IMG/VR virus record: IMGVR_UViG_3300032241_002220
Location: 25,376-89,375 of that record
Strand: one strand, 5' to 3'
Length of the DNA stretch: 64,000 nt
From: a virus
Lineage: Duplodnaviria > Heunggongvirae > Uroviricota > Caudoviricetes
The first letter of the stretch is position 1. Each line of letters starts with the position of its first letter. Position numbers and translations under genes: made by a program. Below are positions 11,005 to 45,248 of the stretch, in pieces. The notes beneath the pieces were generated by a model. The model saw only the letters and a list, made by a program, of their open reading frames with translations. It had not been told where the DNA came from and searched no databases.

Positions 11005-11087
11005 AATGTAATCTCTCGCAAAAAAACGAAAAAGAACGTGGCTACCGTAAGGTAGCTTCGTATATTTACGTATAATAAAATTAAAAC
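11005..11087 (+). promoter_or_regulatory. compound promoter (two CTCTCGC boxes + GCTACC-GTAA-GGTAGC hairpin + -7 TATATTTACG)
   Basis: AATGTAATCTCTCGC box. GTAA-tetraloop hairpin immediately 5' of the -7 element. ATG 11088. Confidence 0.55.
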
Positions 11088-11372
11088 ATGACATTAGCAC
11101 AACAATTAAAAGTTACAGAATTTCCATTTATTGTTAAAGATTCAAAAGGTAACCAAATCTATTTTGAAACTTCAAATGGATATTGGTGCAAATATGAATA
11201 TGATTCAGAGGGCAATAATATATATGAGGAAAATTCAAATAAAGAATGGATGAAACGTGAATTTGATTCAAAACGTTTTGTGATATATTATGAAAATTCG
11301 TACGGATCTATTACAGATAAAAGATCAAAAAGTAATGTTTCTTCTACAAAAACAAAATTGGCTATTCAGTAA
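11088..11372 (+). CDS. hypothetical protein
   Basis: 94 aa ORF directly downstream of a conserved promoter. Confidence 0.55.
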   Translation: MTLAQQLKVTEFPFIVKDSKGNQIYFETSNGYWCKYEYDSEGNNIYEENSNKEWMKREFDSKRFVIYYENSYGSITDKRSKSNVSSTKTKLAIQ

Positions 11373-11408
11373 ATGGTTCGTATATTTACGTAAATAAAAA
11401 TAAAGGTT
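11355..11408 (+). promoter_or_regulatory. Bacteroidetes-type promoter (-33 TTGG, -7 TATATTTACGTAAATAAAAATAAA)
   Basis: Conserved motif TTCGTATATTTACGTAAATAAAAATAAA. ATG 11409. Confidence 0.6.
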
Positions 11409-11864
11409 ATGCCACTTATACAATTTTCAAACAAAAATAAATACGGTACATTACGAACTCGTATTTTATATACCGAATCAATGCCCTTTAGTATTAATCC
11501 TAAAGGATTTGGTGACACTATAATAGTTAAGGTATTTAAATACAAACATGAACATCATTTACCTCCTACCTTATTTATAGATACAAAAGGAAAAAAATAC
11601 ATTTTACCTACTTGGGTTGAAGTAGTACCGGAAACCACTTTATCTGATATAGAATGGACTCAACCTAAATTAAAAGGTGAGGTTAAACAAGTTAAAGTAG
11701 AATCTAATACTTACCGATTTGAATCTAAAAGTGAACCGGGTTCATTTTATACTGTTACTCAAAAAGGTGATAAATTAAAATGTGATTGCCCTGGAACGTG
11801 GAGAGCAAAAAATAGGGAATGTAAACATATTTTAGAAGTAAAATCAAAATTAAACATAAAATGA
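11409..11864 (+). CDS. hypothetical protein with SWIM-type zinc finger
   Basis: 151 aa. KCDCPGTWRAKNRECKH shows the CxCxnCxH pattern. Preceded by a conserved promoter. Confidence 0.5.
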   Translation: MPLIQFSNKNKYGTLRTRILYTESMPFSINPKGFGDTIIVKVFKYKHEHHLPPTLFIDTKGKKYILPTWVEVVPETTLSDIEWTQPKLKGEVKQVKVESNTYRFESKSEPGSFYTVTQKGDKLKCDCPGTWRAKNRECKHILEVKSKLNIK

Positions 11865-12592
11865 AAACAATAATATTAGGAGATACCCATGGTCGTAACT
11901 ATTGGAAAAAAATAATTGAACACGAAAATCCAAATAGAGTAATCTTTATAGGAGACTATTTTGATTCATTCGATATTCCCGGAGTAGACCAAATTCATAA
12001 TTTTAAAGAAATTATTGAATATAAACAAAATACAAAAACAGAAGTAATAATGTTAATTGGTAACCACGATTATCATTATTTCCCAGAAATTGGGGATTGT
12101 GGAACTAGTGGTTATCAAAGAGGTATTGCTCCAAATATTATTCAAGTAATAGATGAAAACAGACATCATCTTCAAATGGCTTACAATTTTGGTGATTTTG
12201 TATTTACTCATGCTGGTGTTAGTGAACAGTTCATGGATCAAACGTTTGGTAAAACAAATTGGAATGTAGAATCAATGGTGGTTGATTTAAACGAAATGTT
12301 TAAATATAAACCCTTAGCATTCATGTTTAATGGATTTAACGCGTATGGAGATGATCTATGGCAAACACCCATTTGGATTAGACCAAAATCATTAATAGAA
12401 GTAAACCGTGATTATTTAAGAAAAGAAATAATCCAAGTTGTTGGACACACCTCAATGAAACAAATAGATATTGAAGGTAAAGCAACAGGTGGTAGATATT
12501 ATTTTATAGATTGTTTGGATACCTCAGGAGAATATCTTATCATTACGGACGGAGAAGTAACTGTTAACTCGTATAAAAATTATGGAAAGTAA
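11861..12592 (+). CDS. calcineurin-like metallophosphoesterase
   Basis: 243 aa. GDTHG...GDYFD...GNHD motifs. Confidence 0.75.
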   Translation: MKTIILGDTHGRNYWKKIIEHENPNRVIFIGDYFDSFDIPGVDQIHNFKEIIEYKQNTKTEVIMLIGNHDYHYFPEIGDCGTSGYQRGIAPNIIQVIDENRHHLQMAYNFGDFVFTHAGVSEQFMDQTFGKTNWNVESMVVDLNEMFKYKPLAFMFNGFNAYGDDLWQTPIWIRPKSLIEVNRDYLRKEIIQVVGHTSMKQIDIEGKATGGRYYFIDCLDTSGEYLIITDGEVTVNSYKNYGK

Positions 12593-12800
12593 AGATTATA
12601 TTTTACGTAGAGATTTTTTAATCAAACAAATGAGAAAACAAAATTTCTATTTGGAAATGGGTCTTTATAACGAAGGTTCTAAGGGTAATAAGCGAGGTCG
12701 AAAACCTGCTCCTTCTAAAAGAATTGAACGTGAAGTTAACACTAAATTATATTCACCAAAAAAATTAACAAACCAGGAAATAGATGAATTTTGGGACTAA
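12582..12800 (+). CDS. hypothetical basic protein
   Basis: 72 aa ORF. Confidence 0.4.
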   Translation: MESKDYILRRDFLIKQMRKQNFYLEMGLYNEGSKGNKRGRKPAPSKRIEREVNTKLYSPKKLTNQEIDEFWD

Positions 12801-14430
12801 TAAATTAAACATTTTAGGTATTATAGGTGGTACCCACTCTTGTGGTGTTGCCTATGTACAACAGGGAGAAGTGATAGCTGTACTTGAAGAAGAACGCTTA
12901 TCAAGAGTTAAACCATGGAAAGATTTTGAATCAGATTTTTGGAGATATCCTCTTCAAGGTTTAATAACATTACATGACCGTTATAATGTTAATTTTGAAG
13001 ATATAGATTATTTTACTAGTTTTCTTGAATATGATGTTATAGCAAATATGTTGAAAGCAACAGTTAGTTATGATTTACCTAAAGAGAAATTTTTCAAAAC
13101 GGAACATCATGAAACACATTGTGCTTTAGCTTATTATCTATCTGGTTTTGAAGATGATACTCTAATTATAGCAATCGATGGTAGTGGAGAATATCACAGC
13201 GCTAAATATTATTTAGGCAGTAAAGGTGAAATGACTTATATTGATGGAATTGGTATTGATAGAAATTCACTAGGGATGTTTTATGCTGCTATAACGGAAC
13301 TATTAGGATTTAAGCGTTTAAAAGATGAAGGTAAAGTAGTTGGAATGGCTGCTCATGGAGTTTATTGGGAAGGTATTTACAAAGCATTCCATAATGTTCT
13401 TCAAATAGAAGATATTCAAACTAATAAATCAACATTCCCCGGAAATGATACAGCAGGTGGAGATGTTTATTTAAATACTTATAAAAATTTCTTTGAAGTA
13501 GTAGGTAGTAAATGTTGGAAAAATCCTCAAGCACTTAAAGATATAGCATATACTGGTCAGTTGGTGTTTGAAGAAAAAATACTTGAATTAATTGATAATC
13601 TTCACAAACGTTATCCTAATGTTAAAAAATTAGCATTATCTGGAGGTATATTTGCCAATGTTAAATTAAATAAACGAATAAATGAATTAAATTGGGTTGA
13701 TGAAGTATTCATTACCCCACCAATGGGCGATGAAGGATTAATGTTAGGTTCGGCCTTACTTGTAATAAAACATTTTAATCCTGAATTTAAACCTGTTCGT
13801 TTATCTGATGTTTATTTTGGTAATGAATACACTGAAGATGAAGTAAATAAAGCAGCTAAATCAATTTTAGGTACTTATAATTATGTTCCTTTTAATTTTG
13901 ATTTTATTATCAGCTTATTATTAAATAAGAAAATATTAGGTTTATATCAAGGTAAAAGTGAACATGGTCCCAGAGCATTAGGTAATAGAACTATTATGTG
14001 TGAGGCGACACATCCTGAAACATATGATATAATCAATGGTAAATTGCAGCGTAACGATTTTATGCCTTTTGCTCCTGCTGTATTGGATGAAGATGCAGAT
14101 CGTTTATTTGAAATTGATAAATCAAAATATACAGCCGAGTTTATGACTATGTTGTACGATACTAAAGATGAATGGGCTGATAAATTACCTACAGTAACTC
14201 ATCCTAAAGATAAAACAGCACGTATCCAAATAGTAAAACAAAATAGTAATCCATTATTTTATCAGATACTTAAGGAATATAAACAAAAAACAGGTGTTGG
14301 ATGTTTAGTAAATACATCTTTCAATATTCATAATGAACCTATTGTGGATAAACCTGAAGAAGCATTTACCCATTTGAAAAATGGAGTTATTGATTATTTA
14401 GTAACACCGTTTGGTGTTTATAGTATATAA
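12784..14430 (+). CDS. NodU/CmcH-family carbamoyltransferase
   Basis: 548 aa. N-terminal ILGIIGGTHSCGVAYV (ASKHA/Kae1-like) and C-terminal GGIFANVKLN...PMGDEGLMLGSAL are typical of carbamoyltransferases. Confidence 0.6.
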   Translation: MNFGTNKLNILGIIGGTHSCGVAYVQQGEVIAVLEEERLSRVKPWKDFESDFWRYPLQGLITLHDRYNVNFEDIDYFTSFLEYDVIANMLKATVSYDLPKEKFFKTEHHETHCALAYYLSGFEDDTLIIAIDGSGEYHSAKYYLGSKGEMTYIDGIGIDRNSLGMFYAAITELLGFKRLKDEGKVVGMAAHGVYWEGIYKAFHNVLQIEDIQTNKSTFPGNDTAGGDVYLNTYKNFFEVVGSKCWKNPQALKDIAYTGQLVFEEKILELIDNLHKRYPNVKKLALSGGIFANVKLNKRINELNWVDEVFITPPMGDEGLMLGSALLVIKHFNPEFKPVRLSDVYFGNEYTEDEVNKAAKSILGTYNYVPFNFDFIISLLLNKKILGLYQGKSEHGPRALGNRTIMCEATHPETYDIINGKLQRNDFMPFAPAVLDEDADRLFEIDKSKYTAEFMTMLYDTKDEWADKLPTVTHPKDKTARIQIVKQNSNPLFYQILKEYKQKTGVGCLVNTSFNIHNEPIVDKPEEAFTHLKNGVIDYLVTPFGVYSI

Positions 14431-14442
14431 AAATAAAAGGTT

Positions 14443-15021: not shown

Positions 15022-15025
15022 TATT

Positions 15026-18128: not shown

Positions 18129-18225
18129 GATAAATACAATCTCTCGCGGGTCTTTCGCAAATCTTCATAAAAAATGTGGAGAAGCGAAAGGCCCGTCGTA
18201 TATTTACGTAAATAAAAATAAAAAC
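18129..18225 (+). promoter_or_regulatory. compound promoter: conserved box ATAAATACAATCTCTCGCGG + 11-bp hairpin enclosing the -33 element + -7 TCGTATATTTACGTAAATAAAA
   Basis: GGGTCTTTCGC...GCGAAAGGCCC inverted repeat flanks AAAATGTGGAG. Core motif 20 nt before ATG 18226. Preceded by the 12-bp palindrome TATCGCGCGATA. Confidence 0.6.
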
Positions 18226-18461: not shown

Positions 18462-18517
18462 ATAAGTTTGGTTACCTAAAAAACAGTTCGTATATTTACG
18501 TAAATAAAAATAAAAAC
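18462..18517 (+). promoter_or_regulatory. Bacteroidetes-type promoter (TTTGGTTACCTAAAAAAC-N-TTCGTATATTTACGTAAATAAAAATAAAAAC)
   Basis: -33 TTTGG, 19-nt spacer, -7 TATATTTAcg. ATG 18518. Confidence 0.65.
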
Positions 18518-20052: not shown

Positions 20053-20116
20053 TCGCTATTAGTATTTGGAGGAGCAAAAGCTCCTCCTTATTTTTACCTA
20101 AATAAAACATATAAAA
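20053..20116 (+). promoter_or_regulatory. terminator/promoter hybrid: TTTGG + GGAGGAGC-AAAA-GCTCCTCC hairpin + TTATTTTTACCTAAATAAAAC
   Basis: Perfect 8-bp GC hairpin followed by a T-run (terminator for the 19804 gene) overlapping a promoter-like motif for ATG 20117. Confidence 0.5.
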
Positions 20117-20562: not shown

Positions 20563-20731
20563 GTATTTAGCAGTGGCTTTGGCATTGTTTGGTATGTATA
20601 ATTTATTTACATTAACCGAAGGATGGATACATGGTAAACCAGTAGATGTAGCCAAAGTATGGATATGTGGCGGTTCTACTATTTTAGTATATATAATCAA
20701 TAAAATACTAGAAAAACAAAATAGAAAATAG
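20546..20731 (+). CDS. small membrane protein
   Basis: 61 aa, hydrophobic. Confidence 0.4.
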   Translation: MKKVYEYLAVALALFGMYNLFTLTEGWIHGKPVDVAKVWICGGSTILVYIINKILEKQNRK

Positions 20732-20744
20732 TTGGTTGTTTAAA

Positions 20745-20780
20745 ACAAGGGTTGTATATTTACAACACGGAAAAAATAAT
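20745..20780 (+). promoter_or_regulatory. promoter-like variant (GGTTGTATATTTACAACACGG)
   Basis: ATG 20781. Confidence 0.35.
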
Positions 20781-22282: not shown

Positions 22283-22337
22283 AGTTTGGAGGGGCGAATA
22301 CCCCTTCGTACATTTATGTAAGTAAAAATAAAAACAT
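22283..22337 (+). promoter_or_regulatory. promoter: TTTGG + GGGGCGAATACCCC hairpin spacer + TACATTTATGTAAGTAAAAATAAAAAC
   Basis: The hairpin sits in the spacer between -33 and -7. ATG 22338. Confidence 0.6.
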
Positions 22338-23599: not shown

Positions 23600-23657
23600 A
23601 AATTTGGCTACCTCAAACATTAGTCGTATATTTACGTAAATAAAAAATTAAAAAATT
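23600..23657 (+). promoter_or_regulatory. Bacteroidetes-type promoter (TTTGGCTACCTCAAACATTAGTCGTATATTTACGTAAATAAAAAATT)
   Basis: ATG 23658 (nadV). Confidence 0.65.
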
Positions 23658-27160: not shown

Positions 27161-27251
27161 AGATAAATACAATCTCTCGCGGATTTTTTTACAAAAAACG
27201 TGGAAAAGCGTAAAACCCGTCGTACATTTACGTCAATAAAGAATTAAGGTT
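27161..27251 (+). promoter_or_regulatory. compound promoter (box ATAAATACAATCTCTCGCGG + hairpin + -7 TACATTTACG)
   Basis: Same architecture as 18129. CGGATTTTT...AAAACCCG inverted repeat around ACGTGGAAAAG. ATG 27252. Confidence 0.6.
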
Positions 27252-27575: not shown

Positions 27576-27589
27576 TATAATATTATTTG

Positions 27590-27638
27590 GTTATTTAAAA
27601 ATAAATTCGTACATTTACGTAAATAAAAAATTAAGGTT
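27590..27638 (+). promoter_or_regulatory. promoter (TTCGTACATTTACGTAAATAAAAAATTAAGGTT)
   Basis: ATG 27639. Confidence 0.55.
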
Positions 27639-28047: not shown

Positions 28048-28425
28048 ATGAAATTTGAATCAGGAAAAGAATACGCTAAAGCATTAGTTAATGGTATAGT
28101 ACAATCCGAATCAGAAACACCAGCCGAATCAAGGATTCCAGATGAATTGTTGGAATATTTTTTCAAAAATATTGAAGATTTATGTGATCAAAAATATTAT
28201 AATTACATAGTTGGTGCCGTTGAAAGTTATATTTTAACAGATACAGAATTGGAAGAAGCGTTTAATAGTGCTAACCAATCATATATTGAAGTAATATTAG
28301 ATGGTTTGGTTGATAAAAATATGCTTGAAGTTTCTGTTGGTGAAGGTGGAGATATACTTTATGGTTTAACTCCTCAAGGTGAACAAGTTGTTAAAAAACT
28401 AAATCAAAATCCTTTGGAAAATTAA
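28048..28425 (+). CDS. hypothetical acidic protein
   Basis: 125 aa ORF. Confidence 0.45.
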   Translation: MKFESGKEYAKALVNGIVQSESETPAESRIPDELLEYFFKNIEDLCDQKYYNYIVGAVESYILTDTELEEAFNSANQSYIEVILDGLVDKNMLEVSVGEGGDILYGLTPQGEQVVKKLNQNPLEN

Positions 28426-28464
28426 AATATTAGTCGTACATTTACGTTAATAAAAAAATAAAAC
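28420..28464 (+). promoter_or_regulatory. promoter (GTCGTACATTTACGTTAATAAAAAAATAAAAC)
   Basis: ATG 28465. Confidence 0.55.
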
Positions 28465-30912: not shown

Positions 30913-31356
30913 ATGAAAATGAAAACATATCAAGGTAAAATAAGGAATTTAGAACCAAACCAAGTATTTTGTTTTGGCTCTAATCCACTCGGAATTAACG
31001 GTTCGTTAAGAACTGGTAAGGGTGGATCAGCTTTATTTGCCTTAAAAAAAGGTTGGGTTAGACAAGGTGAAAGAATGAATAATTGTTTATCTTCTTGTGG
31101 TAAAGCATGGGGTATAGTCACCGTGACTGGACCTGGAAAGAAAAAATCTAAAACTCCGGAACAAATACAAGCGAATATATTAAAATTATATAGACATGCA
31201 GAAGCTAATTTTGGACAAGAGTTTTTAATTGCTTATACTGGAATTAACAATTATAATTTAAATGGGTATTCTAATAAAGAATTAGCAAAAATGTTTTCAA
31301 CTTTTCCAATACCTGATAATATAGTATTTGAAGAAGAATTCAGCACATTATTATGA
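30913..31356 (+). CDS. hypothetical protein
   Basis: 147 aa ORF. Confidence 0.45.
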   Translation: MKMKTYQGKIRNLEPNQVFCFGSNPLGINGSLRTGKGGSALFALKKGWVRQGERMNNCLSSCGKAWGIVTVTGPGKKKSKTPEQIQANILKLYRHAEANFGQEFLIAYTGINNYNLNGYSNKELAKMFSTFPIPDNIVFEEEFSTLL

Positions 31357-31644: not shown

Positions 31645-31747
31645 GATATAATCTCTCGCGGGTTTTGTGTAAATCTCTATAAAAAGTTTGGAGAAACATA
31701 AAACCCGTCGTACATTTACGTCAATAAAGAAATAAAAAATAAACAAA
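31645..31747 (+). promoter_or_regulatory. compound promoter (box ATAATCTCTCGCGGG + hairpin + -7 TACATTTACG)
   Basis: CGGGTTTTGTG...CATAAAACCCG inverted repeat around AGTTTGGAG. ATG 31748. Confidence 0.6.
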
Positions 31748-32843: not shown

Positions 32844-32884
32844 TTACATAATATGAAAGAAAAACTATCGGACAAATTAATGAT

Positions 32885-33091
32885 GTGTTGGATGAATATT
32901 TCCAATTAGATCAACTTAGATTTATTGACAAATGGGTGAGAGACCCTAACAATAAATGGAAACAAGAAAGGGTTGATAAAGCTATTAACCTATTAGACGA
33001 ATATAGAGAAAAACGTGCTAATCTAATCAAAGAAGATAAAGAAAAAAACGGAATGGCAATGGCGGGGCGACTACAAACAATACCACTATAA
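32885..33091 (+). CDS. hypothetical protein
   Basis: 68 aa ORF. Confidence 0.35.
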   Translation: MLDEYFQLDQLRFIDKWVRDPNNKWKQERVDKAINLLDEYREKRANLIKEDKEKNGMAMAGRLQTIPL

Positions 33092-33232
33092 TAAATCCAG
33101 ATACAACCAACGCCCATACACCAAACGAGATAGATAATAAAATAAATCAACTATATACACCGACGAGGAAAACACCCAATGATATAGATGATATAACACG
33201 AGTAAAACGCCCAACTAGTAGATAGATAGCAA

Positions 33233-33321
33233 TAACCGAATGGGTGAGGATCGACGTTGTTTTAGGCCTGTAATGTGTGACCAACGGTGGGGAAACGGGT
33301 GGGTGAATGGGTGGGTGAGGG
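33233..33321. repeat. G-rich short tandem repeats (AATGGGTGAGG, ACGGGTGGGTGA, ATGGGTGGGTGAGGG) with G-quadruplex potential
   Basis: GGTGGGG...GGGTGGGTGAATGGGTGGGTGAGGG: at least 5 GGG runs within 35 nt, inside a 380-bp ORF-free segment. Confidence 0.6.
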
Positions 33322-33399
33322 TATAGTATGTGGAAGTTATATGGCGGAACGTGGAGATGGTGATTTTCGCGGAGATAACCCTTTTTCCTCGCGCATCCA

Positions 33400-33486
33400 A
33401 CCACCTCCGATCGATAAAGTATATACGAGAATCGCGTGGAAATGCGATTTTCTTGTCGTATATTTACGTCAAATAATAAAAAACAT
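33400..33486 (+). promoter_or_regulatory. promoter with AATCGC-GTGGAAAT-GCGATT hairpin over the -33 region + -7 TATATTTACG
   Basis: Same hairpin-over--33 architecture. ATG 33487. Confidence 0.5.
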
Positions 33487-33589: not shown

Positions 33590-33894
33590 TTGCGATTTTC
33601 CCATATCTTCCCATATGTATAACCGATAAGCGAATTCGACTTTGGGATAACGCTGGTTTCCCCAACAAAGTAGCACGGCCTAGGCACGCAAAATGTTATA
33701 GCTTAATATTATCATGAGGTCGGACGGATAAATCCTCACAATAACGTTCAAAGAGAATAGGCAGCTCAACATAATGTCTCAGGAATAGATACCTGGTCAA
33801 ATGCTCTAACGGTAAAAAATTTAAAACTTGCATATAAATGCAGGCTATCATACTGCTCGGCACGATAAATAAACCTTATCACAGAAATATTTGG

Positions 33895-33944
33895 TAAATC
33901 GAAACACCGGTCGTATATTTACGTCAATAAAGAAATAAAGCGAT
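33895..33944 (+). promoter_or_regulatory. promoter (GTCGTATATTTACGTCAATAAAGAAATAAAG)
   Basis: ATG 33945. Confidence 0.55.
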
Positions 33945-34139: not shown

Positions 34140-34213
34140 AAATAGTTTGGTTACCTGAAGAAATGGTCGTAGATTTAACACATAATAATAATAACAATAA
34201 AAATAAAACAGTT

Positions 34214-34468
34214 ATGAAAAACACAGAAACACAATCAGTAAAACGCGGTCGTCCAGTTAGCACAAATAGTGCTCGTCAAGCAAGATTAGCAGCATGGGAA
34301 GCTAAACGTGCTAGCGGAATGGAAGTAAAACGCGGTCGTCCGGCTAAAGCAAAAACAACAAACGATGCTCCTAAAACACCGGAAATGCCTGTTGCTCGTA
34401 GGAAATCAGCAGTAAACAAAAACACAGATGTGGTAGTGATAGATAATATCAACCCAGAAAATAATTAA
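34214..34468 (+). CDS. AT-hook-like DNA-binding protein
   Basis: Two KRGRP motifs. Start set at the internal ATG after a promoter-like variant. Confidence 0.35.
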   Translation: MKNTETQSVKRGRPVSTNSARQARLAAWEAKRASGMEVKRGRPAKAKTTNDAPKTPEMPVARRKSAVNKNTDVVVIDNINPENN

Positions 34469-34605: not shown

Positions 34606-34714
34606 ACAGATACTCTAACAGGCGCCAACCTGTCCCTATGGCGGGGCTAAGTAGAGTCAGTATTTTAAAACATAAAAATCAAAAAATAGGGCCTTTGTTT
34701 TTTATTATAATACG

Positions 34715-34870
34715 TTCCGGGCCGGTGCCGGGGTAAGATCTGGTGCCGGCCGTACGGCGTATATATTATGATAGTATTAGGATACCACGCGCGCTGATGT
34801 CCATCGATACGGCGGGCGGTGGAGAAAAGGATTAGATTAAAAGACAGAGCCTCTACAAATCCTCCACCAC
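34715..34870. repeat. GC-rich palindromic island (CCGGGCCGGTGCCGGGG / GGTGCCGGCCG, CGCGCGC, GGTGGAG...CTCCACC long hairpin)
   Basis: About 60% GC over 150 bp in a roughly 30% GC genome. Repeated GGTGCCGG. Non-coding. Confidence 0.55.
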
Positions 34871-34973
34871 CGATTGTATATACCTATATACTACCCCCAT
34901 TCATGGATTGGTTTTTCGAAATGGCAAACTTTTCTAAAATCCACAAAAAACAAAAAGAAAGATCTTTATAAAA

Positions 34974-35025
34974 AATTTGGAAACCACAAAATATATACGT
35001 ATATTTAAGTATAAATTAAAACAAT
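34974..35025 (+). promoter_or_regulatory. promoter variant (TTTGGAAACCACAAAATATATACGTATATTTAAGTATAAATTAAAAC)
   Basis: ATG 35026. Shares the TATATTTAAGTATAA form with the tRNA-array promoters. Confidence 0.5.
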
Positions 35026-35413: not shown

Positions 35414-35737
35414 ATGAAAAAACTTATACTAATACCGTTATTGGCTTTATATTCCAGTATTCAAGCCCAGTGTGTGGTTGCTTTACCAACGGCTTTTACG
35501 CCAAATAAAGATGGTTTAAATGATACTTTTAAAGCCATTGGAAGTGGTTATATAGTTCACGATTTTATTATCTTTAACCGTTGGGGAAACAAGGTGTTTG
35601 AATCAACAAACAATATGGGTTGGAATGGTGTAACCAATGGAATAGAACAAGATCCGGGTGTATATATGTACTATCTAGTGTATGATTGTAATGGTGAGGA
35701 AAAATATATAAAGTCAACAGTAAATCTAATTCGATAA
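35414..35737 (+). CDS. secreted protein with T9SS/gliding-motility C-terminal sorting domain
   Basis: 107 aa. Signal peptide. FTPNKDGLNDTF...IFNRWGNKVFEST...WNG matches the Bacteroidetes type-B CTD motif. Confidence 0.55.
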   Translation: MKKLILIPLLALYSSIQAQCVVALPTAFTPNKDGLNDTFKAIGSGYIVHDFIIFNRWGNKVFESTNNMGWNGVTNGIEQDPGVYMYYLVYDCNGEEKYIKSTVNLIR

Positions 35738-35741: not shown

Positions 35742-36191
35742 ATGAACATAGTAGAAACACCAGGGCAATATGGCACTGTTAAAAAATCATACGCAAATGT
35801 TGATTTAAAATATAAAAACTTCGCCAAACAAGTAAGAGTGTTACCAGCACCTTACTTTGACCAGCCCCACGTTTATTTCACCTTAAAAGCGATTCATGAG
35901 CCGGGTGAAAAAGGATGGCCAAAAGGAGGAATTGAGGTTTACAGTGATGGAGGAGGAGTTTATAACTATGAATTAGATCAAGTTATAGTACATCCGTATG
36001 TTTTGGGTGTTAAAAAGTTTGGTCCCGAAAAAGAACCAAAACCGGAAAATACAACAAGCAAATATGTTGCAACCGGTGGTAAAAGAGGTCGTAAACCGTT
36101 GGATCCGGAAACCAAAGCTCAACGCGAAGCCGATAAAGCTCAACGAGCAGCAAAAAGTGGAGGAAAACGCGGTCGTCCTAAAAAGAAATAG
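35742..36191 (+). CDS. hypothetical protein with C-terminal AT-hook-like basic tail
   Basis: GGKRGRKP...GGKRGRPKKK. Confidence 0.45.
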   Translation: MNIVETPGQYGTVKKSYANVDLKYKNFAKQVRVLPAPYFDQPHVYFTLKAIHEPGEKGWPKGGIEVYSDGGGVYNYELDQVIVHPYVLGVKKFGPEKEPKPENTTSKYVATGGKRGRKPLDPETKAQREADKAQRAAKSGGKRGRPKKK

Positions 36192-37083: not shown

Positions 37084-37136
37084 AAATGTGTGGAGGAGCG
37101 AAAGCTCCTTCGTATATTTACATAAATAAAAAGCTT
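37084..37136 (+). promoter_or_regulatory. promoter: TGTGG + GGAGGAGC-GAAA-GCTCCTTC hairpin + TATATTTACATAAATAAAAAGCTT
   Basis: GNRA-loop hairpin in the spacer. ATG 37137. Confidence 0.55.
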
Positions 37137-37937: not shown

Positions 37938-38003
37938 GAAATTTGGTTATCTAAAAAATCGTTCGTATATTTACGTATATTAAAAAATTAAAAAATCAAG
38001 GTT
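37938..38003 (+). promoter_or_regulatory. Bacteroidetes-type promoter (TTTGGTTATCTAAAAAATCGTTCGTATATTTACGTATATTAAAAAATTAAAAAATC)
   Basis: ATG 38004. Confidence 0.6.
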
Positions 38004-39311: not shown

Positions 39312-39363
39312 AATTTGGAAAATTAAAAAATCGTTCGTATATTTACGTAAATAAAATGATAAA
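39312..39363 (+). promoter_or_regulatory. Bacteroidetes-type promoter (TTTGGAAAATTAAAAAATCGTTCGTATATTTACGTAAATAAAATGATAAA)
   Basis: ATG 39364. Confidence 0.6.
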
Positions 39364-40945: not shown

Positions 40946-40947
40946 TT

Positions 40948-40993
40948 GAATCGACTGGGTTAAAGGGCGGGTTCGACTCCCGCCCCGATTCCA
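40948..40993 (+). ncRNA. tRNA-like minihelix (acceptor + T-arm only) resembling the tmRNA 3' domain
   Basis: GAATCG-ACTGGGTTAAAG-GGGCGGG TTCGACT CCCGCCC-CGATTC-CA. Same T-loop TTCGACT as the tmRNA at 48426. 13 bp coaxial stem. Sits between two genes. Confidence 0.4.
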
Positions 40994-41006
40994 AAAAACA
41001 AATATT

Positions 41007-41327
41007 ATGAAAAAAATATATCATTTAGTAGACTCAAAACTCAAAATTAACGAATATGATTTTGAAGTAGAATCAATAAATTCAGATAGAACAATCTATA
41101 GGTTAAAAAGATCTGAAGTAAAAGAACAATGGACATTACCTGGAGAATTGTTATTAGAGATTGAAGATAATGGAAATGGTTTTGAACTTATAGTTTTTCA
41201 ATTCCCTAATCAATACGATACATTTGCCGAATTATCAGTGTTAATGAATTGTATTAGAGCATTAGATACAGGTATTACTAATACTTTTGAACTTATTGAA
41301 TCAAATCCAATAGCAACAAATTTATAA
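41007..41327 (+). CDS. hypothetical protein
   Basis: 106 aa ORF. Confidence 0.45.
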   Translation: MKKIYHLVDSKLKINEYDFEVESINSDRTIYRLKRSEVKEQWTLPGELLLEIEDNGNGFELIVFQFPNQYDTFAELSVLMNCIRALDTGITNTFELIESNPIATNL

Positions 41328-41582: not shown

Positions 41583-41771
41583 ATGGCCGACACAATCAAT
41601 GTTCAGAAATCAGATTTGATAAATCAACTTTTCTTTTTAAACGAAATAAAACAAGATCTTTGGGTATTTCATCCAAACAATCCCGAACAAATTAATGTTG
41701 TTCAAGAATATGAAGCTATAGTGGAAGAAATGAAATCTATAGAAGAAAAAATAGAAAGTTTGGAAAATTAA
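41583..41771 (+). CDS. hypothetical protein
   Basis: 62 aa. Confidence 0.35.
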   Translation: MADTINVQKSDLINQLFFLNEIKQDLWVFHPNNPEQINVVQEYEAIVEEMKSIEEKIESLEN

Positions 41772-41990
41772 AAAAACATTTGTATATTTATCGCGGAAAC
41801 AAGAAATTATATATATTTATATTAAACAATTAAAAATGCAATTAATATCATTACATACAAGCTGGCCTATAGAACGTAGAGATACGTTATCGCTAGGGTA
41901 TTGCTTTAGTGCGAATATTAATGTGCAAGGCAAACCAATACCAAACCAGGATACAATGGAAAAAGGGTAAGATATAAATACCAAAACATT

Positions 41991-42022
41991 AGCTCCTGGT
42001 TCAAAAGATCAGGAGCTTTTTT
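41991..42022 (+). terminator. rho-independent terminator
   Basis: AGCTCCTG-gttcaaaagat-CAGGAGCT + TTTTT, just upstream of the tRNA array. Confidence 0.65.
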
Positions 42023-42029: not shown

Positions 42030-42102
42030 GGTGCCTAAGCTAATCTGGTGAAAGCGCTAGACTGAAAATCTAGAGAGATAGGGTCGAAACCTATAGGTAC
42101 CA
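42030..42102 (+). tRNA. tRNA-Phe (GAA)
   Basis: Acceptor GGTGCCT/AGGTACC. Anticodon stem CTAGA/TCTAG with loop CTGAAAA. Confidence 0.75.
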
Positions 42103-42172
42103 CAAAAACATAAAAATGAAACGAAAACAGTAACGCCGCTCTGAAATACGAGTGGCATAATAGAAATAAAAT

Positions 42173-42245
42173 GCGCTCGTAGCTCAATTGGTAGAGTAGC
42201 TGGCTTTTAACCAGCGGGTTGTAGGTTCGAACCCTACCGGGCGCA
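42173..42245 (+). tRNA. tRNA-Lys (TTT)
   Basis: GCGCTCG...TAGCTCAATTGGTAGAG. Anticodon stem GCTGG/CCAGC, loop CTTTTAA. T-arm GTAGGTTCGAACCCTAC. Confidence 0.85.
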
Positions 42246-42263
42246 CTTAAAAATATAACACAG

Positions 42264-42338
42264 ACGCGTGTGTAGCTCAATTTGGTAGAGTGTCGGTCTC
42301 CAAAACCGAAGATGAGGGTTCGAGTCCCTACATGCGTG
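42264..42338 (+). tRNA. tRNA-Trp (CCA)
   Basis: Anticodon stem TCGGT/ACCGA, loop CTCCAAA. T-loop TTCGAGT. Confidence 0.8.
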
Positions 42339-42345
42339 CAAGATT

Positions 42346-42418
42346 GCCTTCATAGTTCAATGGATTAGAACACTTGGCTACGGACCAAGAAATAGGAGTT
42401 CGAATCTCTTTGAAGGTA
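42346..42418 (+). tRNA. tRNA-Arg (ACG)
   Basis: Acceptor GCCTTCA/TGAAGGT. Anticodon stem CTTGG/CCAAG, loop CTACGGA. Confidence 0.8.
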
Positions 42419-42423
42419 CAAAA

Positions 42424-42496
42424 GGTCAAATGGCCGAGATGGCGTAGGCGTATGTCTGCAAAACATACCACAACAGTTCGAATCTGTTTTTGACCT
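42424..42496 (+). tRNA. tRNA-Cys (GCA)
   Basis: Acceptor GGTCAAA/TTTGACC. Anticodon stem TATGT/ACATA, loop CTGCAAA. T-arm AACAGTTCGAATCTGTT. Confidence 0.8.
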
Positions 42497-42506
42497 CTTA
42501 AAAAAA

Positions 42507-42560
42507 ATGTTTGGCTACCTAAAAAAACAGTCGTACATTTAAGTATAAGAAGATCTTTGA
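42507..42560 (+). promoter_or_regulatory. tRNA-array internal promoter (TTTGGCTACCTAAAAAAACAGTCGTACATTTAAGTATAAGAAG)
   Basis: Same -33/-7 architecture, 20 nt 5' of tRNA-Pro. Confidence 0.55.
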
Positions 42561-42579
42561 CATATTGGGATTAATTCAA

Positions 42580-42656
42580 TCGAGAGGTCGGGCAGATGGT
42601 TATACCCGCGTGCTTTGGGAGCACGATATCGCTGGTTCGAATCCAGTTCTCTCGAC
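42580..42656 (+). tRNA. tRNA-Pro (TGG)
   Basis: Acceptor TCGAGAG/CTCTCGA. Anticodon stem CGTGC/GCACG, loop TTTGGGA. T-loop TTCGAAT. Has its own promoter-like motif upstream. Confidence 0.75.
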
Positions 42657-42663
42657 ATAAAAT

Positions 42664-42738
42664 GGGCTGGCATGTTCCAAGGCTTGGCGATTCTCCTTTG
42701 CACGGAGAGTGTGAAGAGTTCGATTCTCTTCTGGTCCA
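42664..42738 (+). tRNA. tRNA-Ala (TGC), atypical D region
   Basis: Anticodon stem TCTCC/GGAGA, loop TTTGCAC. T-arm AAGAGTTCGATTCTCTT. The acceptor needs 3 G-U pairs. Confidence 0.5.
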
Positions 42739-42743
42739 CATTC

Positions 42744-42814
42744 AGTCCCTTAGCTCAACGGAAGAGCGCTTGTTTTACATGCAAGAGGCTGTGATATCGT
42801 AATTCACAGGGACT
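42744..42814 (+). tRNA. tRNA-Val (TAC)
   Basis: Acceptor AGTCCCT/AGGGACT. D-arm GCTC..GAGC. Anticodon loop TTTACAT. T-loop ATCGTAA. Confidence 0.7.
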
Positions 42815-42891
42815 ACTCATGGTTTATTAGTATACAATGTCAATCATAGGAACTAATATTGGAGTTATACCAATTAAAAAATATAACAAAC

Positions 42892-42963
42892 GCAGATATC
42901 GTATAGCGGTTATTACTCTGGTCTTCCAAACCGGAGACGTCGGTTCGATTCCGACTATCTGCT
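42892..42963 (+). tRNA. tRNA-Gly (TCC)
   Basis: Acceptor GCAGATA/TATCTGC. Anticodon loop CTTCCAA. T-arm GTCGGTTCGATTCCGAC. Confidence 0.85.
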
Positions 42964-42968
42964 CTTAT

Positions 42969-43041
42969 AGTCCAATGATGTAACTGGCAACATGGCGTGT
43001 TTTGAGCTCGCTCTTCTAGGTTCGAATCCTGGTTGGACTAC
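42969..43041 (+). tRNA. tRNA-Gln (TTG)
   Basis: Acceptor AGTCCAA/TTGGACT. D-stem ATGT/ACAT. Anticodon loop TTTTGAG. T-arm CTAGGTTCGAATCCTGG. Confidence 0.75.
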
Positions 43042-43045
43042 ATTT

Positions 43046-43135
43046 GGAAGCATAGCCTAATTGGTAAGACAGCAGTCTTGAAAACTGCCGTGTCGGTGAT
43101 GAATCGGCTTATAGGTTCGAGTCCTATTGCTTCCG
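43046..43135 (+). tRNA. tRNA-Ser (TGA), class II
   Basis: Acceptor GGAAGCA/TGCTTCC. Anticodon stem GCAGT/ACTGC, loop CTTGAAA. About 22-nt variable arm. T-arm ATAGGTTCGAGTCCTAT. Confidence 0.85.
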
Positions 43136-43488
43136 CTAAAATAAACTAGACACTGTAAAAACCAGTGGTTGACTTAATAACTATAGGAGTAATTACCTAT
43201 GTATGCGAACAGCAATTAATCCTGACAGCAATGTTTATTTTAATATGGGTCTTTAAGCTTTAAGGTGAAGCGCATGTTTGTGGAGCATGAGAACTCGGTT
43301 CAATACCGTGATGGACCCCAACAAGGAAAGTAAAGCAACGAGGTTGTTGCCACCACCTGCTAAGTGAGTGGATCATTAAATTGATTGTGTTTCGACTACA
43401 CTGCTTTCCGCGAAATCCAATGTGTGCTGCTGCTAGCCGGAGACACAAAACAGAAGTGAAGGAACTGTTCCACATTTGGATTTTTATT

Positions 43489-43561
43489 GGAGATATAGTA
43501 GAATGGTTCAGCACACCTGTCTGATACGCAGGTAATCCAAGTTCGAGTCTTGGTATCTCCA
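43489..43561 (+). tRNA. tRNA-Ile (GAT)
   Basis: Acceptor GGAGATA/TATCTCC. Anticodon loop CTGATAC. T-arm CCAAGTTCGAGTCTTGG. Confidence 0.8.
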
Positions 43562-43571
43562 CTTATAAATT

Positions 43572-43644
43572 GGACTTGTAGCTCAGAGGCAGAGCAGGCG
43601 GCTGTTAACCGTCAGGTCGGTGATTTCGAAATTCCCCAAGTCCG
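43572..43644 (+). tRNA. tRNA-Asn (GTT), degenerate T-arm
   Basis: Acceptor GGACTTG/CAAGTCC is perfect. D-arm GCTC..GAGC. Anticodon loop CTGTTAA. T-stem pairs poorly (GGTGA TTTCGAA ATTCC). Confidence 0.55.
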
Positions 43645-43651
43645 CAAAATT

Positions 43652-43740
43652 GAGAGTAAGGTAACTATTGGTTGGTTATCAACGGCTGTAACCCGTCAGG
43701 CCCAGAAAGGGGGTAGGTTCGATTCCTACTACTCTCACCA
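43652..43740 (+). tRNA. tRNA-Tyr (GTA), class II, CCA encoded
   Basis: Acceptor GAGAGTA/TACTCTC followed by A-CCA. Anticodon loop CTGTAAC. Variable arm CCCAGAAAGGG. T-arm GTAGGTTCGATTCCTAC. Confidence 0.75.
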
Positions 43741-43761: not shown

Positions 43762-43820
43762 AGAGGTTGGCTTATAGAAATCTTGTTCGTATATTTAGGT
43801 ATAAGAAAAAAGATAAGAAG
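43762..43820 (+). promoter_or_regulatory. tRNA-array internal promoter (TTGGCTTATAGAAATCTTGTTCGTATATTTAGGTATAAGAAAAAAGATAAGAAG)
   Basis: After tRNA-Tyr, before the second tRNA sub-cluster. Confidence 0.5.
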
Positions 43821-43835
43821 CTCTTTGAAAATATT

Positions 43836-43941: not shown

Positions 43942-44015
43942 GCACGAATAGTTCAATGGTTGAACATTTTCATATCCAGAAAAAGTAACGGGTTCAATTC
44001 CCGTTTCATGCCCCA
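43942..44015 (+). tRNA. tRNA-like gene with non-standard anticodon loop ATATCCA (anticodon ATC?), CCA encoded
   Basis: Acceptor GCACGAA/TTCATGC (one C-A mismatch) + C-CCA. Canonical D-arm TAGTTCAATGGTTGAAC. Anticodon stem TTTTC/GAAAA. T-arm ACGGGTTCAATTCCCGT. Confidence 0.45.
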
Positions 44016-44067
44016 AAAAAACTTTCTTAAACATTCCCCTAAACTTATTTGATGAATAGTAAGGACC

Positions 44068-44145
44068 AGCGTTACTTCGCGTGCAAGGTGCACATTTAAA
44101 TTTGGCTTTTAAAAATCGCGGTTCAATTCCGCCTGAAACGCTACC
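44068..44145 (+). ncRNA. degenerate tRNA-like element ending in ACCA
   Basis: T-arm GCGGTTCAATTCCGC and a terminal ...GAAACGCTACCA. 5' AGCGTTA pairs with AAACGCT, but the D/anticodon region (GTGCAAGGTGCAC hairpin) does not fold as a tRNA. Confidence 0.3.
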
Positions 44146-44168
44146 AATGTTCTTTCATCATTTTTTAT

Positions 44169-44241
44169 GTTCCTGAGGACAAAATGGTTGAGTCGTCACC
44201 CTTTCAAGGTGAAGGAGCGGGATCGTTACCCGTCAGGAATA
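44169..44241 (+). tRNA. tRNA-Glu (TTC)
   Basis: Acceptor GTTCCTG/CAGGAAT (one G-U). Anticodon stem TCACC/GGTGA, loop CTTTCAA. T-arm GCGGGATCGTTACCCGT. Confidence 0.7.
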
Positions 44242-44247
44242 CAACAA

Positions 44248-44318
44248 GGTCTATTAGTGAATTGGTATCATATCTCACTGTCTATGAGAAGTGCTCGGAT
44301 CGTAACCGTGATAGACCG
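44248..44318 (+). tRNA. tRNA-Asp (GTC)
   Basis: Acceptor GGTCTAT/ATAGACC. Anticodon stem TCTCA/TGAGA, loop CTGTCTA. T-loop ATCGTAA. Confidence 0.7.
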
Positions 44319-44327
44319 CCAACAAAT

Positions 44328-44400
44328 GCTTCTATAGCTCAATGGTCAGAGCAGGACGCTTATATCGTCAAGGCTACAGGTTCGAGTCCTGTTAGAAGTA
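44328..44400 (+). tRNA. tRNA-Ile (TAT) (AUA-reading, UAU anticodon)
   Basis: Acceptor GCTTCTA/TAGAAGT. D-arm GCTC AATGGTCA GAGC. Anticodon loop CTTATAT with U33 and A37. T-arm ACAGGTTCGAGTCCTGT. Confidence 0.65.
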
Positions 44401-44417
44401 CTAAAAACAAAAATAAA

Positions 44418-44609
44418 ATGAAAAAAATAGTAATCTACAAAGATGTAGAAAATGTAAACGGTAAAAAAGAACGTCATATTCTTCGTTCAATCCAGCCTAG
44501 TTATGATTGGCAAGGATATGCGAAAAATAAAAACAGTATGATAGATTCTGAAGTTAGGAATTTAGCACGTGCTTTAGAACCTAGTTTTACAGGATTCTAT
44601 GTAGCATAA
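44418..44609 (+). CDS. hypothetical small protein
   Basis: MKKIVIYKDVENVNGKK... The track ORF 44184..44609 starts inside tRNA genes, so it is trimmed to the first ATG after tRNA-Ile(TAT). Confidence 0.4.
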   Translation: MKKIVIYKDVENVNGKKERHILRSIQPSYDWQGYAKNKNSMIDSEVRNLARALEPSFTGFYVA

Positions 44610-44621
44610 AGATATTTGCTG

Positions 44622-44690
44622 TAGTAATAAGTTGAGTTACTTCGTCTGACTTTTTAATTCATAAATGAAAAAACAACTCACTTAAACTTT
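44622..44690 (+). repeat. conserved hairpin element copy 2 (GTAATAAGTTGAGTTACTTCGT ... AACTCACTTAAAC)
   Basis: Second copy, upstream of the tRNA-Met/Thr/Arg/Leu sub-cluster. Confidence 0.5.
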
Positions 44691-44712
44691 CTCAGTAAAC
44701 TTATTTTAAAAT

Positions 44713-44787
44713 TGTGGGATGCGTAGAAAATGGTTATCTCGTCAGTCTCATAAGCTGAAGTTCCCGGTTCAAGTCCGGGTCCCGCAA
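44713..44787 (+). tRNA. tRNA-Met (CAT)
   Basis: Acceptor TGTGGGA/TCCCGCA (one G-U). Anticodon stem TCAGT/GCTGA, loop CTCATAA. T-arm CCCGGTTCAAGTCCGGG. Confidence 0.7.
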
Positions 44788-44911
44788 CATAAGTCCTTGA
44801 TCAGGAACCGAAGATATGGTCGGCCTCTTGTGTAAACAATGCACACTGCTACCATCTAAACCGTAGGTTAGCACAGTTCACAACTCTGGGGATATTTTAA
44901 AAGTTGTATTT

Positions 44912-44986
44912 GGACGCATAGTTTAGTTGGAAAAACACTTGCCTTGTAAGCATGAGTTCTCGGGTCGGTTCCGGGTGTGTCCTCCA
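44912..44986 (+). tRNA. tRNA-Thr (TGT), CCA encoded, unusual T-loop
   Basis: Acceptor GGACGCA/TGTGTCC + T-CCA. Anticodon loop CTTGTAA (stem has one U-U). T-arm CTCGG GTCGGTT CCGGG. Confidence 0.6.
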
Positions 44987-44991
44987 CGCAT

Positions 44992-45064
44992 GGTTCTATC
45001 GTTCAATGGATTAGGACAATTGCCTTCTAAGCAATTTATGCTGGTTCGAATCCAGCTAGAACTA
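44992..45064 (+). tRNA. tRNA-Arg (TCT)
   Basis: Acceptor GGTTCTA/TAGAACT. Anticodon stem ATTGC/GCAAT, loop CTTCTAA. T-arm GCTGGTTCGAATCCAGC. Confidence 0.85.
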
Positions 45065-45070
45065 CAACCC

Positions 45071-45152
45071 GCTCCGATGGTGTAATTGGCAGCCACGCTA
45101 GACTTAGGATCTAGTGTCGTAAGACGTAAGGGTTCGAGTCCCTTTTGGAGCA
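45071..45152 (+). tRNA. tRNA-Leu (TAG), class II
   Basis: Acceptor GCTCCGA/TTGGAGC. Anticodon stem CTAGA/TCTAG, loop CTTAGGA. Variable hairpin GTCGTAAGACG. T-arm AAGGGTTCGAGTCCCTT. Confidence 0.8.
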
Positions 45153-45162
45153 CTTAACAAAA

Positions 45163-45248
45163 TATTTGGCTAAGCAAAAAATTGGTCTTATATTTACGAC
45201 ATAATAAAGCAATTAAAAATTCTCTAACAATAAAAAATTAGTAGTAAA
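45163..45248 (+). promoter_or_regulatory. promoter for the Ro60-like gene (TTTGGCTAAGCAAAAAATTGGTCTTATATTTACGACATAATAAAG)
   Basis: ATG 45249. Confidence 0.5.

Follow-up and report, generated by a model that had tools for sequence, protein, structure and literature searches.

Promoters recognised by the primary sigma factor of the Bacteroidota (sigma-ABfr or sigma-A) have the consensus TTTG at -33 and TAnnTTTG at -7 (Baez 2019, PMC6847099; Ryan 2020, PMC7366714; Guerin 2021, PMC9723704). In the -7 box, TAHHTTTG, the bases T-12, A-11, T-8, T-7 and T-6 are near-invariant and G is absent from -10 and -9; in the promoters of Flavobacterium johnsoniae G-5 is near-invariant as well (PMC6847099). By a published rule, transcription begins 4-5 nt past the -7 box (PMC6847099, PMC9723704, PMC7366714). 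The second described system is that of the promoter-early stem-loops (PeSLs), terminator/promoter cassettes of the T4-type phages phi1, RB49, PST and nt-1, where a stem-loop lies mostly between -35 and -10 and termination of transcription was demonstrated (PMC2839356, PMC4122927). Here we describe a two-box element that recurs in a 64,000-nt stretch of DNA (the window; positions 25,376 to 89,375 of the IMG/VR record IMGVR_UViG_3300032241_002220) from an uncultured marine tailed phage with 30% G+C and coding almost wholly on the + strand. By its bases and spacing, the element is a real and highly significant promoter family of the Bacteroidota type. Its 24 copies would represent a single strong promoter of the phage, which the unmodified host sigma-A most likely reads soon after infection.

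The element was searched for with the pattern [TG]TGG-N19-TA[CT][AT]TTTA, which gave about 24 matches on the + strand of the window, all with a gap of 19 nt, and none on the - strand. A weight matrix of 52 columns (positions -9 to +42) was built from 23 copies and found 24 matches, the 24th being the copy at 34147. All were on the + strand and scored 29.4-59.7 bits, the range of 8-29 bits was empty, and the maximum in 50 Markov shuffles scored with the same matrix was 10.2 bits. The same motif family was found independently by a repeat finder (families D1-D8). A sequence-only reading of this DNA had reported about 22 copies; their existence and coordinates stand far above chance, and its count was slightly low. 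The consensus given there is correct. In full, the copies consist of an A-tract, tTTGG, 16 variable nt with a central A, TCG, TAyATTTA, CGT and an A-rich leader. The first box is TTGG in 19 copies and GTGG in 5, with TGG invariant. Among the 23 matrix copies, A at -7 to -4 relative to TTGG and the CGT that follows the -7 box are each kept in 17-19.

Twenty-three copies lie within 11,037-45,201 and one outlier is at 2,680. Weight-matrix copies are absent from 45.2-64 kb and from the flanks read together with the window (7.9 kb before and 10 kb after it, giving about 82 kb of a longer genome). The block of 11-45 kb is made up of small open reading frames (ORFs) and auxiliary genes, and the copy at 2680 is the only one in about 46 kb of replication, glycosyltransferase and structural genes around it. 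Glycosyltransferases occupy 1-10.7 kb of the window. From 11 to 41 kb, small ORFs stand together with genes for thymidylate synthase, a PRPP-synthetase-like protein, NAPRTase, RNA ligase, carbamoyltransferase, phosphoesterases and two DUF932 proteins; the TROVE/Ro60 gene starts at 45,249, and baseplate genes are found from about 51 kb on.

All copies sit in spacers between genes or RNA genes, directly 5' of a gene start or a tRNA cluster. Twenty-one precede protein genes, two precede tRNA sub-clusters (42,581 and 43,942) and one the TROVE/Ro60 gene (ATG 45,249), which bears out the earlier view that the copies drive genes, tRNA sub-clusters and Ro60. Because two copies precede tRNA clusters, the element is a signal for transcription and not for translation. 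The end of the -7 box is 16-23 nt from the ATG in 16 of the 22 protein-gene copies (Ro60 included), whereas the other six have distances of 4 (leaderless), 29, 30, 36, 45 and 52 nt. The predicted leader is A-rich and 12-19 nt long in 16 of these 22, and the predicted +1 is an A in 18 of all 24 copies. The Shine-Dalgarno sequence, said to be missing, is depleted: 3 of 96 genes have GGAG, GAGG or AGGA before them, where chance would give about 8. The leaders of these 96 genes are A-rich with peaks at -12/-11, -6/-5 and -3. At many gene starts of the phage family, also inside operons, the start-codon context AA(A/T)AAA(A/G)GTTATG recurs, which suggests a preferred translation-initiation context of the non-Shine-Dalgarno type.

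As the copies are nearly identical and one is carried by a cassette that close relatives may have or lack (see below), they could also be mere repeats, for instance transposon ends, recombination sites or packaging signals that do not act as promoters. This is hardly credible, since the copies are co-directional with the genes, lie in spacers and mostly keep a near-fixed distance to the start codon. The transposon end, brought up by the sequence-only reading as an unrelated repeat, was rejected: there is a single orientation, no inverted pairing and no transposase, and the two blocks with their free spacer are kept at orthologous positions in diverged phages. Such conservation was followed before the orthologs of the DUF932 gene behind copy 19 (52-87% amino-acid identity), where both boxes and their spacing are kept in 21 of 21 sites and the spacer, flanks and leader diverge. 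Several of these sites fail the search pattern and were therefore not selected for it.

With the first T of the -7 box set at -12, the G of TTTG falls on -33. T-12, A-11, T-8, T-7 and T-6 are invariant in the 23 matrix copies and are also present in the 24th (34147). Position -10 is a pyrimidine and -9 is A or T in 23 of the 24 copies; G at -10 occurs only in the weakest copy, 34147. The rule of 4-5 nt puts the predicted start on an A, which coincides with the ATG of copy 1 at 2716. The invariant bases match the published sigma-A consensus and uphold a layout of the Bacteroidota type rather than the E. coli -35/-10 type, with the caveat of an A at -5. The -33/-7 promoter was reportedly also described in Bayley 2000 and Vingadassalom 2005, and Chen 2007 is said to have mutagenised the -7 box. 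The phage promoters share with those of Bacteroidota sigma-A the TTTG ending at -33, TA at -12/-11, TTT at -8 to -6, the AT-rich spacer and upstream region, the short A-rich leaders without a Shine-Dalgarno sequence and the occasional leaderless mRNA. In the host, by contrast, the spacing is variable, and a -33 box can hardly be made out in F. johnsoniae. The phage promoters have a rigid spacer length, A at -5 throughout and extra invariant bases, namely a second G in TTGG and the TCG of -15 to -13.

An E. coli-type promoter (TTGACA, 16-18 nt, TATAAT) was rejected. The best such reading, TTGGnn-17-TAyATT, scores 9/12, and an ordinary sigma-70 promoter of this form would call for an AT-rich marine host outside the Bacteroidota, for which the relative Mel-JY01, recorded as a Microcystis phage, might be quoted. 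We consider this very improbable. A -10 hexamer would leave the invariant T-6 and A-5 without function, the window shows no enrichment of sigma-70-like sites (97 vs 117 in shuffles; 90 vs 85), and Mel-JY01 itself has TTGC-N19-TAnnTTTG promoters. The Shine-Dalgarno depletion, a type IX sorting domain and a relative that infects Flavobacterium also speak against it.

The sorting domain is found in the 107-aa product of the ORF 35414-35737, which matches the type IX secretion C-terminal sorting domain CHU_C at E 3.3e-14; this phage protein is apparently sent through the type IX secretion system of the host. To our knowledge, type IX secretion is confined to the Bacteroidota and close allies. Megablast of 25 kb of the window against cultured phages gave no DNA-level match, and the nearest cultured relative is Flavobacterium phage vB_FspM_immuto (NC_055915; immuto), with proteins of 32-49% amino-acid identity. 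A look-up of the exact sequence of the last complete ORF in the window gave no match either. The claim that the motif names the host phylum is backed by CHU_C, by the Shine-Dalgarno depletion with A-rich leaders, by the host of immuto and by the Bacteroidota origin of 8 of the 15 bacterial genome matches described below. These four agreeing lines support a Bacteroidota host.

The baseplate and tail genes are without the two-box motif and follow a sigma-like gene and a second motif, ATATTTATA. The gene (50335..51054, + strand) encodes a sigma-70-family-like protein of 239 aa that matches Pfam Sigma70_r2 at E 0.0017 and is a candidate late sigma factor. Eight of 23 orthologs also match Sigma70_r2 (best E 5.6e-5), the window protein matches PHROG 234 'late sigma transcription factor' at E 5e-4 and is 49% identical to an immuto protein, and the JGI label for its relatives is 'sigma24 family'. 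Its AlphaFold model is moderate (pLDDT 65) and has two helical domains. Foldseek gave no significant match for the model, the best matches being sigma factors, and sequence and profile searches of solved structures gave no match. The protein has at least 8000 metagenome relatives, hence the phage family is very abundant.

Ten + strand copies of ATATTTATA were found, at 8668, 10197, 16942, 36287, 36781, 41813, 48492, 51060, 53895 and 63974. Nine of them are 3-22 nt before a start codon, and that at 63974 is just before a gene past the window end. Behind the sigma-like gene the motif reads AATATTTATA (51059..51068, + strand), 16 nt before the ATG of the first following gene, 51085. It precedes 20 of 20 orthologs of ORF 51085 (43-91% identity) in this form or as a one-base variant, and it also stands before the immuto ortholog and before immuto structural genes. 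ATATTTATA is probably a late promoter, and it is probably read by the phage sigma-like protein. That the structural genes lack the two-box motif, as had been proposed, was confirmed for the baseplate and tail genes and for both flanks. The proposed early/middle regulon is supported by the baseplate module free of two-box copies, the sigma-like gene and ATATTTATA; from these we infer the timing, and the two-box family is probably early or middle.

In T4, the early promoters use the host sigma-70 and the late promoter TATAAATA is read by gp55. The window resembles T4 in that promoters with two boxes in the accessory region stand beside a second class before structural genes, a short AT-rich single block (ATATTTATA), and in a small sigma-like protein that matches a PHROG annotated as late sigma factor. 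It differs in that the protein is only weakly similar to gp55 (E 5e-4) and, with 239 aa and two helical domains, exceeds it in length; the candidate late motif also has another sequence. No equivalent of the T4 middle promoters (MotA/AsiA) was found.

The spread of the element was followed with the strict pattern TTGG-N16-TCGTAYATTTACGT, which was present in at least 117 IMG/VR loci of 26-37% G+C. In 116 of the 117 listed loci the copies are all on one strand. When the spacer was lengthened by 2 nt, 2 loci matched, compared to at least 117 for the strict pattern. In 185,579 bacterial genomes 15 matches were found: 8 are in Bacteroidota metagenome-assembled genomes (one before an OmpA-like gene, Fluviicola), 4 represent a single conserved Clostridia locus and 1 is a phage contig of the family. 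The strict motif was therefore rejected as a general host promoter. A blastn search with a 58-nt consensus promoter gave no match, probably as the query was masked as low complexity. No description of promoter motifs of Flavobacterium or Cellulophaga phages, immuto or Mel-JY01 was found in the literature.

Immuto has more than 25 promoters before small ORFs, of the form aaaAGTTGC-N16-TTCn-TAT[AC]TTTA-GGTATCAATAATTAAAAC. They share with the window copies the A-tract, TTG, 19-20 nt, a T-rich stretch and TAT[AC]TTTA, in which -5 is A as well. T-runs come after the spacer hairpins that some of them have, and a ATATTTATA-type motif stands before structural genes. They differ by AGTTGC for TTTGG, TTCn for TCG and GGTATCAATAATTAAAAC for CGTAAATAAAAATAAAAAC. 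In Mel-JY01, AAAAAGTTCTTGC-N19-TA(nn)TTTG modules (TTGC-N19-TAnnTTTG) precede genes and are of the canonical Bacteroidota promoter type. The bases common to the window phage, immuto and Mel-JY01 are exactly the A-tract, TTG, 19-20 nt and TAnnTTT, and the remaining bases are lineage-specific. The Mel-JY01 locus (L147; PP395634.1, 'Microcystis phage Mel-JY01', 138812-179483) shows 36-45% amino-acid identity and has a cyanobacterium as recorded host; this Microcystis host may deserve a second look.

Several observations weigh against reading by the unmodified host sigma-A. Position -5 is A in 24 of 24 copies, where the host has a near-invariant G, and the canonical TTG-N20/21-TAHHTTTG is not enriched in the window phage or in immuto. 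No published host consensus includes the second G of TTGG or TCG at -15 to -13. In IMG/VR the A form outnumbers the form with G at -5 more than 10-fold (at least 117 vs 11 loci). Of the 117 listed loci, 104 are related to the window phage, immuto or Mel-JY01, which makes the strict form characteristic of a single phage family; the sigma-like gene was present in every member seen. The unrelated Flavobacterium phage 11b has GTTG-TATATTTG with G at -5, so A at -5 is a trait of this phage family and not of the host genus. As a general trait of Flavobacterium phages it was rejected.

These observations would suit a reader specified by the phage, either the sigma-like protein or a host RNA polymerase modified by a phage factor, with the copies as middle promoters. 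A at -5, TCG and TTGG would then let the phage distinguish its own promoters from those of the host, and the scarcity of the strict motif in bacterial genomes would fit. As the sigma-like protein has two helical domains in its model, it would in principle be able to recognise a site with two boxes, and a dksA/traR zinc finger (ORF 9227) and an AT-hook protein (ORF 34214) are encoded nearby. We nevertheless regard such a reader as unlikely. In the window and its flanks no further promoter class of host type is enriched from which the infection programme could be started, and the bases common to the three lineages are just the host consensus. The full strict motif also stands before a few Bacteroidota chromosomal genes. 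The sigma-like gene heads the structural module and has ATATTTATA directly after it in 20 of 20 relatives, which points to a late role like that of T4 gp55.

The block that holds the sigma-like gene is itself headed by a weak composite site, TTGG-N19-TATATTTATA (48467..48500, + strand; ATG 48504), which matches the search pattern below the weight-matrix threshold. It has the two-box spacing without TCG and overlaps ATATTTATA. The orthologous sites in the relatives L083, L070 and L009 are full TTTGG-N16-TCG-TATATTTATAA composites. In these phages the sigma block is thus preceded by the two-box motif, which argues for the host sigma-A as the reader and against a phage-specified one. A phage-specified reader or modifier keeps a small probability because A at -5 is family-specific. 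The base might, as a speculation, tune open-complex stability or promoter escape.

The conserved core could instead be mainly an operator, in which the 14-nt palindrome TATTTACGTAAATA across the start site binds a dimeric phage regulator that turns all these genes on or off jointly. The palindrome is perfect in 8 of the 24 copies and its CGT is well kept. However, the right half-site is weakly conserved in the window (14-18 of the 23 matrix copies), positions 33-36 are kept at 36-60% in the relatives, and immuto has GGTATCAATAAT there. The palindrome also leaves the strictly spaced TTGG and the single orientation unexplained, and an operator role for the core is quite improbable. Because its right half varies among relatives, TATTTACGTAAATA was rejected as a general operator.

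Eight of the 24 copies (2680, 11037, 18175, 20065, 22285, 31687, 33435 and 37089) contain a stem-loop with dG of -14 to -31 kcal/mol, and the other 16 are without one. Its 3' arm always ends at +19 to +22 (-16 to -13), just 5' of TCG-TAyATTTA. The copies resemble the PeSLs as many near-identical strong early promoters that fit the consensus of the host primary sigma and have an AT-rich tract upstream. Like PeSLs they are concentrated among small accessory ORFs, can have the stem-loop between the boxes and have the start codon close behind, and one copy is on an indel cassette. They differ by the -33/-7 boxes of Bacteroidota type in place of the sigma-70 -35/-10, by a stem-loop in only 8 of 24 copies and by an A-rich leader in place of the 3' Shine-Dalgarno sequence. 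The stem-loops are followed by UCGUAUAUUUA and not by a clean U-run, which speaks against their action as terminators. Terminator activity is predicted for the window copies, and recombination between them, with indels or mini-circles, is conceivable. The cassette was found in L099 (3897-4851), which is 94-97% identical in DNA and has an extra 950 nt compared to 25198-25204 of the window. It contains a 157-aa ORF, a promoter copy and a paralog of the window ORF 25199, and its ends are not both promoter copies. This indel fits, but does not prove, modular shuffling.

The individual copies, all on the + strand, are given from -36 to the predicted +1 with their weight-matrix scores. Copy 1 (2680..2716, 34.0 bits; TTTGG/TCG/TACATTTA), the only one outside the main block, precedes an 87-aa ORF. 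Its ATG is exactly at the predicted start and a leaderless mRNA is therefore expected; the stem-loop ends at +19 (dG -18.4). Copy 2 (11037..11073, 41.2 bits; ATG 11088, 94 aa) is a GTGG variant with the spacer hairpin GCTACC-GTAA-GGTAGC, which ends at +22 and was also flagged as terminator-like. The promoter of copy 3 (11357..11393, 47.5 bits; ATG 11409, 151 aa) is kept before the orthologs in L071, L004, L075, L032, L116 and L065. Copy 4 (18175..18211), with 59.7 bits, is a GTGG variant with a 13-bp stem around the -33 box that ends at +20 (dG -31.1, z -5.3), and its ATG is at 18226 (77 aa); copy 5 (18467..18503, 55.6 bits) stands before ATG 18518 (104 aa). Copy 6 (20065..20101, 36.7 bits; ATG 20117, 61 aa) has degenerate boxes (CCT / TATTTTTA), and its spacer hairpin GGAGGAGC-AAAA-GCTCCTCC, followed by TTATTTTTA, is the best terminator-like site of the region.

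Three copies precede enzyme-like genes: copy 7 (20731..20767, 35.3 bits), with TTG for TCG, a 227-aa metallophosphatase (ATG 20781; Pfam Metallophos), copy 8 (22285..22321, 50.9 bits), with a hairpin ending at +21, a ribose-phosphate pyrophosphokinase-like protein (ATG 22338, 277 aa; Pfam), and copy 9 (23603..23639, 54.5 bits) a member of the nicotinate phosphoribosyltransferase family (ATG 23658, 514 aa; Pfam NAPRTase). Copy 10 (27199..27235, 57.9 bits; ATG 27252, 107 aa) is a GTGG variant of the CGTCAATAAAG sub-class and has an extended upstream homology in common with copies 4 and 13 (repeat family D5). Copies 11 (27586..27622, 45.1 bits) and 12 (28413..28449, 45.6 bits) are followed by ATG 27639 (135 aa) and ATG 28465 (75 aa), respectively. 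In copy 13 (31687..31723, 56.8 bits; ATG 31748, 86 aa) the 13-bp stem ends at +20 (dG -24.3, z -5.4). Copy 14 (33435..33471, 35.8 bits), a GTGG variant with a hairpin ending at +22, precedes a 34-aa hydrophobic peptide (ATG 33485), and copy 15 (33890..33926, 57.4 bits) a 64-aa ORF (ATG 33945).

The weakest copy, 16 (34146..34182, 29.4 bits), has the -7 box TAGATTTA and precedes an 84-aa AT-hook protein (ATG 34214; Pfam AT_hook). Small proteins with repeated KRGRP (AT-hook) are found at 34214-34468 and 36136-36190, directly after promoter copies, and ORF 9227-9544 encodes a dksA/traR zinc finger (E 4.6e-5). The AT-hook proteins (34214, 36136) and the zinc finger protein are possible transcription or nucleoid factors. 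Copy 17 (34976..35012, 33.9 bits) has ACG for TCG and precedes ATG 35026 (128 aa), the next gene being 35414-35737. Both DUF932 genes have a copy of their own: copy 18 (37089..37125, 55.4 bits; ATG 37137, 260 aa; Pfam) is a GTGG variant with the hairpin GGAGGAGC-GAAA-GCTCCTTC ending at +21, and copy 19 (37942..37978, 52.0 bits) precedes ATG 38004 (266 aa). Copy 20 (39314..39350, 51.3 bits) is followed by ATG 39364 (66 aa).

The last four copies belong to the tRNA and Ro60 region. Copy 21 (41759..41795, 33.5 bits), with TTG for TCG, precedes a 44-aa ORF (41836) and then the first tRNA sub-cluster (42030-42497), and a terminator-like hairpin with a T-run lies between the two at 41991-42017. Copy 22 (42510..42546, 52.3 bits) precedes the tRNA sub-cluster 42581-43740; it has no ATG at the usual distance, so here the element is not a translation signal. 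The sub-cluster 43942-45153 follows copy 23 (43766..43802, 41.4 bits). Copy 24 (45165..45201, 47.7 bits), with TCT for TCG, precedes the TROVE/Ro60 gene (ATG 45249, 513 aa; Pfam TROVE E 1.8e-11) with a predicted leader of 48 nt. The Ro60 gene thus has its own promoter copy, and a terminator-like hairpin follows it at 46812. For a Y-RNA partner, Rfam at the gathering threshold and at E<=1 gave only tRNAs and the tmRNA in the flanks.

ARAGORN found 21 and Rfam 24 tRNA genes in the window, plus one tmRNA. The sequence (G/A)(C/T)TCTTTGA(A/C)A(A)TATT occurs after two tRNA promoters (42556-42570 and 43819-43835) and before tRNA-Leu 47036 (46843-46857). We take it to resemble the boxA antitermination site of rRNA operons; within the window, the sites at 42556, 43819 and 46843 are statistically not distinct. 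Two tRNA-like 3' halves, at 30705-30915 (GGGTTCAAGTCCCACC) and 40946-41009 (GGGCGGGTTCGACTCCCGCCC), were called by neither tRNA tool. The first may be a tRNA split by about 110 nt, and at 40967-40983 Rfam aligns the tmRNA 3' end. G-rich non-coding stretches (e.g. GGGTGGGTGAATGGGTGGGTGAGGG) are found at 32844-33440, 34608-34980 and 48933-49052 of this 30% G+C phage, and Rfam gave no match for them.

We propose the following mode of action for promoters that are read by the host sigma-A. The A-rich tract (-45 to -38) would act like an UP element, and TTTG(G) ending at -33 and TAyATTT(A) at -12 to -5 would be the two sigma contact boxes. The fixed gap of 19 nt between TTGG and TA is expected if one protein touches both boxes. 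Transcription would start at the A 4-5 nt beyond the -7 box, and the A-rich leader without a Shine-Dalgarno sequence would suit translation initiation in the Bacteroidota style. In the 34-kb block the promoters would drive short units of small ORFs, nucleotide and NAD-salvage genes, the DUF932 genes, three tRNA sub-clusters and Ro60. In the 8 copies with a stem-loop, this structure probably ends or weakens transcription that comes in from upstream, the T-rich -7 box serving as its tail. If incoming transcripts are stopped there, each such copy would be a combined stop-and-restart signal. The late genes would use ATATTTATA, probably read by the sigma-like protein of the phage.

Phage early promoters are a known kind of control element, and the window offers a clean example from a little-studied host phylum. 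The stop-and-restart cassettes known from T4-type coliphages, with their stem-loop inside the promoter spacer, would here have a counterpart built on another promoter chemistry. What remains distinctive of this promoter family, judged by its bases, is the family-specific A at -5 together with TCG and TTGG. With low probability these bases form a family-wide mark by which a phage-encoded factor, such as the sigma-like protein, the DksA-like zinc-finger protein or another early protein, would steer the RNA polymerase to the phage promoters and away from the TAnnTTTG promoters of the host; if true, this would be a promoter-discrimination and host shut-off mechanism undescribed for Bacteroidota phages, in a very abundant marine family. 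The 24 copies are graded natural variants of a strong Bacteroidota promoter, in which the spacer is fixed, the base at -5 is unusual and the -7 element seems to be extended. Such a set could help to study DNA recognition by the divergent Bacteroidota sigma-A, and its members could serve as expression parts in Flavobacteriia. The phage DNA itself would carry a readable marker of the host phylum. In conclusion, the two-box early class, the candidate late class and the sigma-like gene provide a sequence-level regulatory map for an abundant, nearly uncultured family of marine flavobacterial phages.

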